DNA of 64,000 nucleotides, from assembly GCA_964533935.1 (NCBI GenBank), contig CAZHOG010000002.1:23529-87528 (forward strand), written 5' to 3'. This stretch comes from an uncultured Muribaculaceae bacterium (lineage in GTDB: Bacteria > Bacillota_I > Bacilli_A > RF39 > UBA660). Position numbers: made by a program. Below, in pieces: positions 4,601-10,600 of this stretch. Positions within the stretch are counted from its first letter, which is position 1, and every line of letters begins with the position of its first letter.

Positions 4601-7600
4601 TTATAACATATTTTTTATCTCTTCCACAGCTTTTTTTATTTCTAAATTTGTTTTAATATCATTATCTATCTTGTTGATACTGTGGATAACTGTGGAATGA
4701 TCTCTTCCTCCAAACTCTAATCCTATGCGAGGAAAGGATTCATCTGTTAACATTCTAGATAAATACATTGCAATATGCCTTGGTAAAGTTATTTTTGCAC
4801 TTTTTTTCTTACCCTTTAAATCTTCTACAGTTATATTATAATAATCGCTAACAGCCTTCTGAATGCTTTCTATACTGTTATTTGAATAAATATTCTTGTT
4901 TAAATAGTCCTTTAATGCATCATTTGCAAATTCAATATCGATTTTTTCCGGAACAATCATCGCTGTATAAGCCATTAATCTGTTAATAGTTCCTTCTAAA
5001 TGCCTTACATCATTAGTACACGAATTAGCAATATATTCAATTACATCATCATTTATCATATTTGATAATGTGGTATTTTTTAATTTTTGTTTAATTATGT
5101 TAACTCTTAATTCATAGTCAGGAGGATATATATCAACAGGTAATCCCCACATGAATCTAGATCTTAATCTTTCTTCTAATTTTTTTAAATCATCAGGACT
5201 TTTATCTGAAGAAATAATAATTTGTCTGTTAGACTGTTGAAGAAAGTTGAAAGTATTGAAAAACTCTTGTTGAGTTTTTTCGGCCCCAACTAAAAATTGG
5301 ATATCATCAATAATTAAGACGTCAACATTTCGATATTTATTTTTAAAATTATTTGCATATTCTATTTGATTATCAACATTAGATATATCAGCTATGCCCG
5401 TAAAATCGGTCATAAACATATCACTAGTTGTATACAATACTTTTTTATTACTATTTTCTGTAATAAAATTTCCAATAGCATGCATTAAATGTGTTTTACC
5501 TAAACCACTTTTTCCATAAATAAATAAAGGGTTGTGGATTTTTCCTGGATTTTGTGCAACCGACATTGCAGATACATAAGCTAGTCTATTTGATGAACCA
5601 ACTACAAAATTTGAAAAATTAAGATTTTTATTTAAATTAGTGTCCCAAATTTCATTACTTTGTTCAATTTCATTTTCGATTTCAGTTAATGTATCAACAT
5701 TTTCAGCTTCAGTTATAAAGTTTAATTCATAATTTTCTTTATTTATTGAGAATAAGGTATCTTCAATTAAATTTCCATAAGTTTCTCTTAATATACTTTT
5801 ATGAATCTCCATAGGTACTTGAATTGTTAATTTATTATTATAGTTATTAATAAGTTTAATATCTTTGAACCAAGTTTTAAAAGTCGCAGGATTTAATTCT
5901 TTTTCAATGCGATGCATAAACTCAGTCCAAATATCCTCAATTTGCAATTCAATCACCCCACAATCTGTTGAATACCTTCAATAAATTAATTGTAGCTTAA
6001 TTGTGGATAAAATTAAAGTATTAAATTTAATAAACAGTACTTATCCACAGTTTTTCCACATCTTCAAGCCATATAATAACTCAAAATATTAAAGTTATCA
6101 ACATTTTCCACAAATTTTCTATAAACAATAAAACAACCTGTTAATTATTTATATTAACAGGTTGTTGATAATGTTGATAAATTAAAAAGATCCAGTATTT
6201 TTGCGCTTTTGAATATGGTATGTTATCAACAACTGAAGTTTATATGGTATAAATCTTAAACTAAATATTCCCATTTTAATTTTTAGCTGTGGAATAATCA
6301 ACAATTTATTTTTTAACATGTTGTCTACAGCATATTTGGCAATATATTCACTATTTGCTTCTTTAAGACTAAATACCCCATGAGCTACCTTGTTGAATTC
6401 TGTTGATACAGGCCCAGGACATAATGCTGAAATATGAACTTTACTATTCATATGTTTTAGTTCCTCATATATAGCCATTGTTAGTTTTAAGGAATAGTTC
6501 TTACTAGCATAGTATGTGTTTAATCTTGGACCTGCCATAAATCCAGCACTACTAGTAACATTTAAAATATGTCCATAATCTCTTTTAATAAAGTCTTTTA
6601 AAAATAATTTTGTTAATATATGTAATGCAATTATATTAACATTAATCATTTTTAACTCTGTATCTAAATCAGTTTCGTTAAAAAGACCAAATAATCCAAA
6701 TCCAGCATTATTAACTAATATATTTATATCTTCATTTTTTAGTTGATCATATAATTTATAACAGTTATCAACAACTGATAAATCCATTTCGATAATTTGG
6801 ACATTCACATTAACATTTTTTTTGATTTCTTCCAAACGATTTTTTCTTCTTGCTACAAGGATTAAATCATAATTTAGTGTTGCAAAATAGTATGCCATAT
6901 CTCTTCCTATTCCTGAAGAAGCACCTGTTATTAATACTTTCATAAAATCACCTACATCATTTATAACATTATTTTACCCAAAAAAAAAGATAATATTAAA
7001 TTATCTATTTTATTATATTAATAGTGATTGAATAACTATTTTCTAAATCAGCTTCATCAATAGTTAAATTAAATCCTCTAGATTCAAGTCTATTTTTTAA
7101 TTCTCTTATACTATTAATAGCAGTTTTTAAATCAATTCCTTGAGCTTCTTCTTGTTTTTCTTGGTAATCAGGTTCTAAAGTATTAACCATACTCATTGGA
7201 TCAAATACATCAGGTTGTTTTGTTTCATGAATTTCTTCAATTTGATTATTACTTTCTAAAATATTTTCTGACTCAACATCATTAATTTTTGGTTCATTAT
7301 TATTGAATGGATTAAAATTAAAAAATTGATTAGAACTATTAGTATCGTTACTTGTATTATTATCAATACTTATATCATTTGTAATAGGACTTTCATTTAA
7401 TTGGTTTGTATCAATATTATTAGTATTACTTTGAACATTAAATGAATTATCATCTATATTAATATCATTAGTATTTATGTTTTCATTTATTGTATTATTA
7501 GCAGTATTTTCATTTCCTATAAAATTATTCATAAAATCAAGAGAATTACTACTTGTATCATTTTGAATATTTTCAGTAGCTTCAACTGGAATACTATTTA

Positions 7601-10600
7601 GATTTTCTAGAGGTGAAATGTTTTCATTAATTGGATTAATATTTATTTCATCTTGAACAGAAGAACTATTATCATTCAAAACTGTATCTAAAATATTAGG
7701 TGTTGATGCATTCATTGAATTTGCATTAGGATTAGTTGTAAAAATATCATCAATAGATGCATCTTCATTCATGTTAGCAACTTCATCTTCTAAAAAATTA
7801 AAGAATTTATTTTGTGGTTTAATATCTTTAGAATTATCTACTATAGGAGTATCAATATCTAAAGTTTCAACATTTTCAACAGGTAAATTTAAATCATAAA
7901 CTTTTTCACCAGGAGTTGAAGGTTTTAACATACTTTCAATATCATGTAATCCTTGAGCAGGGTTAATATCTAATGCATTTTCTTTAATTTCATTAATATT
8001 TGGAGTTAAATTTACAATGGGAATTGAAGAATCTTCATCATTATTTAATTTTTTCATTTCGATATCCAATTGTCTTACTGTAAGTCTATCATTAAGAATC
8101 TTGTTAAGCCATTTTACTTGCTCATCTTTATCTTTTAATGATAATAAAGCTCTAGCATGTCTCTCTGAAATTTTTTCATTCATTAACGCTTCTTGAACTT
8201 CATCTGCTAAATTTAATAGTCTTAATTTATTAGCAATAGTAGATTGAGATACACCCATTTTTTCAGCAAGTTGTTCTTGAGTTAAATATCCTCTATCTAA
8301 TAGATTTTTATATGATTTAGCTTCTTCAATAGAAGTTAAATTTCTTCTTTGAATATTTTCTACTAAAGCCACTTCCGCACTTTTATCATCATCAATATTA
8401 GAAATAACAGCAGGAACTGTAGATAAACCAGCTAATTGAGAAGCTTTGTATCTTCTTTCACCAGCAATAATTTCATATTTATCACCAAGTTTTCTTAAAA
8501 CTAATGGTTGAATTATTCCGTGTTGTTTTATAGAAGTTGCAAGTTCTTGTAATGCTTGATCATCAAAATTTATTCTTGGTTGAAATCTATTTGGTATAAT
8601 ATCTTCAACAGGAATTTGCAAAATTTTATCTTCCATATTCATATTAATCAGCCCCATATTCTATTATTAATAATATCTTATTTATTAATTTTTTTCAATG
8701 GCTTTTTGATGATTTTATCATAATCACGTGGAAATTCTTTTGAGCATTTTTCTTTTTTTATAATTACTATATTATTTCTATTACTATTTTCAATAGGTAA
8801 TTTAAAAGTATTTTCTGATTCTATCGAAGAATTGAAAAATTCTAGAGTTTCTTTTGAATTATTTAACTCTTCTTCTGCATTTCCTTTCATAGCAATAAAT
8901 TTTCCATATACTTTTAATACTGGAATAGCAAGTTCTATTAAAATTCTTAAATCAGCAACTGCCCTTGATGTAACATAGTCAAATCTTTCTAAATTATTTT
9001 TAACATATTTTTCTGCTCTATCATAAATTATTGTAACATTATCTAAATTTAATTCTTTAACAATATATTCTAAAAATTTAACTTTTTTATTGTTTGAATC
9101 TAATAAAAAAACTTTTAAATCCGGTCTTGCAATTGACAAAACAAGTCCAGGAAATCCTGCTCCACAACCAATATCTAAAATAGATGAATTATTTTCTATT
9201 AAATTAACAATAGTAAGTGAATCATAAAAATGTTTTAAATAAACACCTTCTACTGTTCTTATAGCTGTTAAATTTGTAGTTTTATTATATTCTAACAATA
9301 AAGAACAAAATGAATCTAATTTTTCAATTTGTTCTTCTGTTAAATCAATATTGATATTTTTAATTTCTTTATAAAAATTTTCTTTATTCATTTTTTCCAT
9401 ATTCCTTTTTTAAATATACTACTAATATTGATATGTCAGCAGGATTAACTCCACTTATTCTTGCAGCTTGTCCAATTGAAATAGGTTTAATTTTTTTTAA
9501 TTTTTGTTTTGCTTCATAAGCTAAATTAATTACTTTGTCATAATCTAAATCATTTGGTATCTTTTTTTCTTCTAATTTAACCATTTTTTCAACTTCTTTA
9601 TAAGTTTTATTAATATATCCTTCATATTTGATATCAATTTCAACTTGTTCTAAAATGTCTTCATCATAATTTAAATCAATGAAATTTTTTAAAAAATCTA
9701 TTTTAATTTCTGGTCTTTTTAGTAGTTGAGTAAATGAAACTGAATGATCAGGAACATTTATATTATTTTTTATAAAAATTTCTTTTACATCTTCATTTAA
9801 TTTAATTTTTTCATTATTTAATATTTCTTTTAAATCTTTAATTGTATTTAGTTTATTTAATAAATTATCATATTGTTCTTGAGATACTGAACCTTTATCA
9901 AACCCTAATTTTCTTAATCTAATATCAGCATTATCATGTCTTAATATTAAACGATATTCAGCTCTAGATGTAAGCATTCTATATGGTTCATTAGTTCCTT
10001 TTGTAACTAAATCATCAATTAATACACCAATGTATGATTCATTTCTTTTTAAAATTAATGGTTCTTTTTCGTTTAGTTTTAAAACAGCATTAATTCCAGC
10101 AATTAGTCCTTGGCCAGCAGCTTCTTCATATCCACTTGTTCCATTTATTTGACCAGCAGTAAATAGATTTTCTATTACTTTAGTTTCAAGTGATGGATTT
10201 AATTGTAATGGATCAATAGCATCATATTCAATTGCATAAGCATATTTAGAAATAACAGCATTTTCAAGTCCTACTAAACTATGAACCATTTTTTCTTGAA
10301 TTTCTGCAGGCATACTTGTAGAAAAACCTTGTAAATACCATTCATCGTAGAATAAGCTTTCTGGTTCTAAGAATAATTGATGTCTTTCTTTATCTTTGAA
10401 TCTAACTATTTTATCTTCTATAGATGGGCAGTATCTTGGACCTACACCAGTAACATATCCTCCATACATACTTGATTTATCTAGATTATCCATAATTATT
10501 TTATGAGTATTAGCATTAGTATAAACTAAGTAACATCTTTGTTGTTCATTAATTTTATATGATGGTTTATTATCAAAACTAAAAGTCCAATAATGGTCAT

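Follow-up and report, generated by a model that had tools for sequence, protein, structure and literature searches.

The locus and the layout of the encoded protein

The stretch of DNA described here, called the window in what follows, comprises 64 kb (64,000 nucleotides, nt) of contig CAZHOG010000002.1, with a GC content of about 24%. On the minus strand, it carries the genes rnpA-yidC-jag-mnmE-mnmG-rsmG, then a noc-like gene and a gene for a short-chain dehydrogenase (SDR), and then dnaA-dnaN-comK-like-recF. The subject of this work is the noc-like gene, located in the origin region directly after rsmG (gidB), which encodes a protein of the ParB family with a stretch of about 300 residues between its DNA-binding domain (DBD) and its C-terminal domain (CTD). 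An identical gene with an identical neighbourhood is found in an independent Logan assembly. The elements of the open reading frame (ORF) are listed below, with residues counted from its first ATG.

7005-8657, minus strand: the whole ORF, 550 residues, which closes the operon rnpA-yidC-jag-mnmE-mnmG-rsmG
8349-8627, minus strand: ParB N-terminal domain (NTD), a cytidine triphosphatase (CTPase) domain, residues 11-103 (Pfam ParB_N, E 4.8e-35)
8043-8342, minus strand: ParB-type helix-turn-helix (HTH) DBD, residues 106-205 (Pfam HTH_ParB, E 2.3e-34)
8160-8246, minus strand: specificity residues Q138, K144, N149, and R166, equivalent to Q173, K179, K184, and R201 of Noc
7143-8042, minus strand: linker insert between the DBD and the CTD, residues 206-505, about 300 residues, acidic and rich in N, D, E, S, and I
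7008-7142, minus strand: Noc-type C-terminal dimerisation domain, residues 506-550, a helix and two strands, matching positions 200-255 of TIGR04285

The first ATG is probably not the translation start. Since a GGGG Shine-Dalgarno sequence is located 9 nt 5' of Met6 (8642) and an identical database protein (P0001) has a length of 545 residues, translation probably starts at Met6, yielding a product of 545 residues; the relatives start with MNMEEK. An earlier reading of this DNA, made from the sequence only, had recognised in the ORF a ParB/Noc module with a GERRYKAS box and an HTH, and both Pfam domains, as well as the position of the box at residues 66-73, bear this out. Across 85 homologues, four boxes are invariant: PNRFQPR, HGIIQPLVxR, GERRYKA (8439-8462), and ENIQRR.

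In the linker (residues 206-505), N makes up 21% of the residues, I, D, and E make up 10% each, and S makes up 9%; the net charge is -49. In an AlphaFold2 model of the protein, built with an alignment of 85 sequences, the predicted local distance difference test score (pLDDT) is about 90 at residues 10-210, falls below 40 at residues 306-471, and rises to 80-93 over the last ~60 residues, which fold as helices followed by two strands. Thus, both the N/D/S-rich disordered stretch of ~300 residues and the ordered-looking end of 45 residues noticed earlier are confirmed by composition and model. The description of the former as a tail needs to be amended: the extension is real and predicted to be disordered, but it has been inserted into the DBD-CTD linker, ahead of the Noc CTD, because the N-terminal 208 residues correspond to positions 1-198 of TIGR04285 and the last 56 residues alone correspond to positions 200-255 of the 255 in that model (E 3.7e-5). 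The same extension had been called highly repetitive; it is indeed of low complexity, but the sole repeat detected in the gene by Tandem Repeats Finder is one of 18 nt in 2.4 copies at 7337-7379, and there is no tandem array.

All comparisons place the protein next to Noc. Its top match in NCBIfam is TIGR04285 (nucleoid_noc), with 284.9 bits in two stretches, whereas the generic parB model (TIGR00180) reaches 188 bits. The best sequence matches in the PDB are the Noc proteins of Geobacillus and Bacillus (7NG0, 7NFU, and 7OL9; 210 and 190 bits), with Spo0J (6SDK) behind them at 172 bits, and the same Noc entries also rank first in Foldseek, with 50-54% identity. The DBD superposes on that of the Noc complex with the Noc-binding site (NBS; 6Y93) with TM-scores of 0.89-0.92. 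We are highly confident that the protein is Noc-derived and NBS-binding in its identity, rather than a generic ParB, and hold the conserved disordered linker to be real with no less assurance.

DNA specificity and the origin region of the relatives

Four residues fix the choice between NBS and parS: Q173, K179, K184, and R201 in Noc, whose counterparts in the ParB of Caulobacter are R, T, A, and G, with Q173, R201, and one lysine at either 179 or 184 being enough for NBS specificity (Jalal 2020, PMC7383237). At these positions Q-K-(N/S/T)-R is present in all 80 family proteins taken from genomes, as well as in 84 database homologues. The former belong to 80 loci from species-representative genomes, which together provide 1.37 Mb of origin-proximal DNA.

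In this DNA the canonical 16-bp NBS, TATTTCCCGGGAAATA, occurs in 24 exact copies and in five with one mismatch, spread over 22 loci. From base composition, only ~4e-4 exact matches would be expected, and the 279 other palindromes of identical composition do not occur at all in the same 1.37 Mb; among the GC-containing palindromes of 16 bp in these loci, the NBS is the most frequent by a wide margin. The sites are found at most a few kb from oriC and, in 27 of 29 cases, between genes, and they recur at jag-mnmE, at mnmE-mnmG, downstream of dnaN, and at rsmG-noc, with two copies ~57 bp apart in some loci. Perfect sites are located in the jag-mnmE/mnmE-mnmG spacers (at ~5900 and ~7340) of L006, L014, L018, L020, L023, L031, L032, L034, L035, L051, and L072. 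In turn, parS (TGTTTCACGTGAAACA), which the sequence-only reading had named as the site to look for, is absent at up to two mismatches from the window and from the 1.37 Mb of the relatives, and the predicted cognate site is the NBS instead.

The most distant members of the family (P0159, P0161, and P0165) have a divergent recognition helix with G in place of R at the equivalent of position 201 (ISEGHAK), and one of the three has GQRR where the others have GERR. As judged from these substitutions, their DNA specificity or handling of cytidine triphosphate (CTP) may be altered.

The same two Pfam domains were found by a protein search in more than 100 clusters, with lengths of 398-647 residues, the named ones being annotated as 'ParB/RepB/Spo0J family partition protein' of 'MAG: Bacilli bacterium' (MAG, metagenome-assembled genome) or of Candidatus Ventrenecus. 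The relatives are found in uncultured gut Bacilli, 'Tenericutes' MAGs, Candidatus Coprovivens, Coprobacillus sp. CAG:605, Firmicutes CAG:460, and Clostridium sp. CAG:609. Candidatus Coprovivens is placed in the GTDB order RF39, an uncultured sister group of Mycoplasmatales whose members are mostly predicted to be walled. Each of the 80 loci has exactly one ParB-like gene, and every one of these genes encodes the long-linker architecture (319-629 residues); a ParB of normal length at this locus in relatives, which the earlier reading would have taken as a sign of an artefact, was not seen in any of them. The gene follows mnmG-rsmG directly in a large majority of the loci, a few contigs ending before rsmG and several having an extra 2-4 kb in between. 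Downstream of it in the relatives are found a convergent class A penicillin-binding protein (PBP), a small ORF, argS, rpoE, and prfA, and no candidate partner gene is conserved beside noc in these regions.

ParA/Soj was sought by phmmer with a B. subtilis Soj sequence (E <= 1e-5) and with the regular expression KGGxGK[ST]. Neither a Soj homologue nor a deviant Walker A motif was found in the window or in the 10 kb around the gene in the 80 loci, where the Soj query had no positive control. The observation that the window holds a single paralogue and no adjacent ParA therefore stands, with neither KGGxGK[ST] nor a second GERR box in a ParB context in its 64 kb, and the Soj/ParA that might have been located just outside it is likewise not seen within 10 kb in the 80 related genomes. 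The ParA-binding motif (L/F/I)G(K/R)G(L/F/I), as defined in PMC12704722, is present in none of the 80 proteins.

These results bear on whether the protein could be a canonical chromosomal ParB/Spo0J that binds a centromere and whose ParA is located elsewhere or has been lost. Its ParB_N and HTH_ParB domains would agree with such an assignment, as would the label that NCBI gives to its relatives. Nevertheless, we consider it very improbable, given the lack of parS in the window and in the origin regions of the relatives, the presence of Q and R in place of the parS-type R173 and G201, the lack of the ParA-binding motif from all 80 proteins and of ParA from the 10 kb around their genes, and the better score of Noc over ParB in every comparison. 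The standard noc-soj-spo0J cluster after rsmG is, in this low-GC clade of uncultured gut Bacilli (RF39-type), reduced to noc alone. Automated annotation labels the proteins generically as 'ParB/RepB/Spo0J' because they score under the cut-off for Noc.

The linker, its conserved motifs, and their possible role

The linker is composed of conserved segments that alternate with variable spacers; in the protein of the window they are arranged as follows.

7920-8024, minus strand: segment A, residues 212-246, IPIVNLTPNINEIKENALDI...HDIESMLKP, delineated by alignments, with moderate pLDDT
7770-7811, minus strand: motif B, residues 283-296, NKFFNFLEDEVANM, an invariant amphipathic short linear motif
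7248-7769, minus strand: variable N/S/D-rich spacer, residues 297-470, predicted to be disordered and including the 18-nt repeat
7305-7331, minus strand: second FF motif, NQFFNFNPF, residues 443-451, inside the variable spacer
7143-7247, minus strand: pre-CTD segment, residues 471-505, NNQIEEI...FDPMSMVNTLEPDYQEKQEEAQG, predicted to be partly helical

Segment A, with the consensus (D/E)IPLVN(L/I)(T/N)PNIxEIxxNAxDI...HDxxSMLxP, is modelled as short helices with a pLDDT of 60-76 and is probably an extension of the DBD. Motif B reads NKFFNFLEDExANM, with F286, N287, L289, E290, E292, and M296 invariant in 85 sequences. Its hydrophobic moment of 0.55 is the maximum for the linker, and a helical wheel places F285, F286, F288, L289, V293, and M296 on one face. 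Other conserved elements are an acidic IE(V/M/T)LD(D/F) and, just before the CTD, NNxIEEI and (F/V)DPMxxVxxLxPxY. Each linker contains one to four FF-type motifs, those beyond motif B being NQFFNFNPF here and LNPNNKFFTP or PFKSIFF in other sub-clades. Over the 80 species, the linker varies from 73 to 383 residues (median 170) and its net charge from -11 to -82, with median contents of 23% D+E and 7% K+R. The shortest members (319-346 residues) keep the motifs with almost no spacer, whereas in the long ones, including the protein of the window, the spacers are expanded.

Over 35 species, the nine-residue string KFFNFLEDE is written in 23 distinct DNA versions, and selection therefore acts at the level of the protein. 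Strings resembling motif B number 67 in these genes and none in 398,000 residues of the other ORFs of the window and the loci. A profile of segment A and motif B, run against 1.84 billion representative proteins, matched only 50 clusters, nearly all of which have this architecture or are short, probably truncated proteins; the exception is one weak match in multiple stretches to a 2,612-residue protein, which was not inspected. All nine of the matches that were retrieved have the ParB N-terminal and HTH domains, with the module behind them, and the most distant members read [KR]F[FI]x[FSN]LEDExxNM. The linker alone matched no family in Pfam and NCBIfam scans, and a literature search found no paper containing 'FFNFLED' and none describing Noc homologues that lack the N-terminal helix; we found no earlier description of this Noc variant in the literature searched. 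Two known motifs were considered as matches and rejected: motif B is not a beta-clamp-binding motif (QLxLF), as the Q is not conserved, and IExLD(D/F) is not a mimic of the FtsZ C-terminal peptide, as it has no conserved P-x-F-L.

The extension had also been suspected of being an artefact of slippage in AT-rich codons, and in a wider form this explanation would cover misassembly, a pseudogene with a frameshift, and recent expansion without function. The genome has 24% GC, the spacer contains 28% Asn, the length differs among species, and the small 18-nt repeat is present, all of which could be expected from such an origin. However, the gene is identical in the independent Logan assembly, its reading frame runs unbroken to a conserved Noc CTD at the end, the architecture is shared by 80 genomes at the species level and by over 100 clusters in the database, and the motifs are invariant with synonymous variation. 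An artefact is therefore hardly credible for a clade-wide gene whose motifs are under selection at the protein level. Length, proposed as a sign of slippage, does vary (319-629 residues), but with invariant motifs and with no large tandem array; compositional drift aptly describes only the variable spacers.

Canonical Noc starts with a 10-residue amphipathic helix (residues 1-10), followed by helix alpha2 before the CTPase domain, and the N-terminal helix is required for function (PMC4331003, PMC8429893). It was described as 'extremely' conserved in all Noc homologues examined; its deletion ends membrane association and function, and an unrelated viral amphipathic helix can stand in for it (Adams 2015). 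The helix is auto-inhibited in apo-Noc and is freed by the CTP-induced engagement of the N-terminal domains. In the protein of the window, only 5-10 residues are located ahead of the NTD, and in all 80 relatives about 16 precede PNRFQPR, whereas in Geobacillus Noc 25 residues precede the point aligned to residue 10 of the query (~16 more than here). An N-terminal helix was also sought in the distant members in which the tail module lies further from the N terminus, and none was found, the extra residues being located after the HTH.

A mechanism that would accommodate these features starts with the HTH, which would very probably nucleate on the NBS, TATTTCCCGGGAAATA. Judging by the conservation of the CTP-binding motifs, the CTP pocket would then close the N-terminal gate, so that the dimer slides as a clamp and spreads. 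The architecture implies that the two chains would be joined only by the Noc-type CTD, beyond an acidic disordered linker of 73-383 residues, and, as they would be held together only by this distant domain, the ring would be much larger and floppier than that of a canonical ParB or Noc. Motif B (KFFNFLEDExANM), aided by one to three further FF motifs, would replace the lost helix as the tether to an effector, with the variable acidic stretches as spacers. We lean slightly towards this chain of events as a whole. A role of motif B in contacting an effector is suggested by its top hydrophobic moment, its one-face helical wheel, and its likeness to the [K/R]FF core of the Noc helix. That it would serve as a substitute membrane tether by binding the membrane directly is the version we prefer, although we give it a little less than even weight.

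A number of observations speak against this interpretation. All biochemical steps, namely the binding of CTP, the formation of a clamp, and the binding to the membrane, are inferred. The TIGR04285 score of 284.9 bits falls below the curated cut-off of 315, and the equivalent of position 184 is N (N149) and not K. No NBS with up to two mismatches occurs in the 64 kb of the window, whose spacer at 12646-12745, equivalent to jag-mnmE, is without the site that several relatives carry; at the density found in the relatives, about one per 47 kb, zero sites in 64 kb is unremarkable and not significant. The absence of soj, spo0J, and parS is established for origin-proximal DNA only. AlphaFold does not predict motif B as a helix. 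The motif has a single adjacent basic residue, is followed by conserved acidic residues, and is embedded in a strongly acidic linker, a setting unfavourable for binding to anionic membranes. Finally, a specific protein interface would account for its strict invariance no less well.

Nearly as probable as the membrane tether, in our estimate, is that motif B and the other motifs of the linker dock protein partners and not lipid, the clamp being a DNA-bound recruitment hub; FtsZ, FtsA, SepF, SMC-ScpAB, DnaA, and DnaN would be the candidate partners. Such docking would explain the strict invariance of the motif, which includes the acidic E290 and E292 as well as N287 and M296, the presence of several distinct conserved motifs in one disordered region, and the acidity of the linker. 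In the AlphaFold2 models of the protein of the window and of a 398-residue relative, motif B has a pLDDT of only 44-54 and is not docked on the folded parts of the protein, as would be expected of a motif that works in trans, and this agrees with docking to a partner. However, no partner gene is conserved beside noc, the motif is absent from the other ORFs of the loci, and no known motif is matched. Conservation does not discriminate between the two kinds of target, since the lipid-binding helix of canonical Noc is also extremely conserved.

We regard it as unlikely that the main role of the acidic disordered linker is to drive the formation of condensates, a kind of role that the earlier reading had raised as phase separation, or to serve as a spacer or entropic bristle, with the FF motifs as generic stickers. 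The predicted disorder, the one to four FF motifs set between low-complexity spacers, and the wide range of lengths would be in keeping with this. Against it, a net charge between -11 and -82 (-49 in the protein of the window) with only ~7% K+R disfavours homotypic coacervation, motif B is no generic sticker, being an invariant sequence of 13 residues at a set distance from the DBD, and the shortest members keep the motifs with almost no spacer.

We can speculate, although we find it rather doubtful, that an order-level clade of gut Bacilli has lost ParABS and retains a re-engineered Noc as its sole protein of the ParB family, with the tether to the membrane or to an effector moved from the CTP-gated N terminus to an invariant internal motif of the long acidic linker. 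If this were true, engagement of the membrane or of a partner would be free of the N-terminal CTP switch known from B. subtilis Noc, and the protein might unite origin anchoring and segregation with nucleoid occlusion. A natural clade without the helix but with the CTPase domain, the NBS-type residues, and the CTD would mean either that DNA is joined to the membrane or the divisome by other means, or that Noc has another function. The five-fold range of linker length (73-383 residues) offers a ready test of the influence of lumen size and linker charge in clamps of the ParB family, and, as soj-spo0J-parS is apparently lacking near the origin, one may ask by what means these gut bacteria with reduced genomes segregate their chromosomes.

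Neighbouring genes and known systems

The following features flank the gene in the window.

2789-3241, minus strand: ComK-family protein between dnaN and recF (Pfam E 3.8e-39), a position kept in many relatives
6182-6943, minus strand: SDR, between noc and the region upstream of dnaA
15891-17687: large serine recombinase, upstream of rnpA and exactly at the GC-skew switch
22579-24505: DUF6414 protein and adjacent AAA ATPase, inside a putative mobile element
25875-28223, minus strand: D5_N primase-like protein

No homologue of the SDR was found in the loci of the relatives that were scanned; in its place, the convergent class A PBP is among the first genes after noc in 55 of the 69 loci with downstream sequence. 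The orientation of the dnaA block also differs. In more than 40 relatives dnaA-dnaN-comK-like-recF is located upstream of rnpA...rsmG-noc and diverges from it, whereas in the window and in Logan contig L001 it is found downstream of noc and the SDR, on the same strand. DnaA boxes in the window are clustered at 5957-6181 and 4456-4600, while the GC skew changes its sign only at ~15-16 kb. From this orientation, unlike that in the relatives, and from the positions of the DnaA boxes and of the skew switch, the block at 6.2-15 kb (SDR, noc...rnpA) looks recently inverted and now head-on to replication. Beyond the recombinase, the region extending to 28223 encodes an ABC-F-type ATPase, a glycosyltransferase, an APH-like kinase, a HAD hydrolase, the DUF6414 and AAA pair, and the D5_N primase-like protein. 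The segment 15891-28223 is probably an integrated mobile element, which may be linked to the inversion, and DUF6414 with its AAA neighbour may be a defence gene pair.

Among the known systems that join DNA to the membrane, RicO of Staphylococcus aureus recognises DNA sites close to the origin, which it links to the membrane by an amphipathic helix that is not N-terminal (bioRxiv 10.64898/2026.03.06.710092). The NBS sites of the relatives are also within a few kb of oriC, but the likeness is a functional analogy only, as the DNA-binding domain of RicO is unrelated, RicO has no CTPase clamp, and membrane binding by the present protein is hypothetical.

The membrane-targeting amphipathic helices of SepF, MinD, and FtsA invite a second comparison. 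KFFNFLEDE has a pattern (a basic residue, FF, a hydrophobic position, and an acidic run) like that of the N termini of SepF and Noc, which read KNFFSMEDEE (B. subtilis) and SRFFGLGEKE, respectively. K2, F5, R7, and F9 of Noc agree with Adams 2015, and the C-domain of the SepF sequence used matches 3ZIH at 94 of 95 residues. Motif B, however, is internal and not terminal and lies in an acidic setting, and a role at the membrane would here be hypothetical.

With ParB/Spo0J (TIGR00180; 6SDK, 1VZ0, and 6T1F) the protein has in common the fold, the CTP-binding boxes, and the NTD-DBD-linker-CTD layout. It differs in having neither the ParA-binding motif nor ParA or parS nearby, and its specificity residues are of the Noc type.

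The closest counterpart is the Noc of Bacillus subtilis, Geobacillus, and Staphylococcus. In B. subtilis Noc the linker comprises about 15 basic residues, whereas in the present family it is acidic, carries motifs, and extends over 73-383 residues. The present protein also lacks the N-terminal amphipathic helix and helix alpha2, position 184 is N, S, or T in the family in place of K, soj-spo0J does not follow the gene, and the score is under the Noc cut-off. What is shared comprises the ParB-type CTPase domain, the HTH with NBS-type residues, the Noc-type CTD, and the position after rsmG, along with 50-54% identity over the first 200 residues and perfect NBS sites in the genomes of its relatives.

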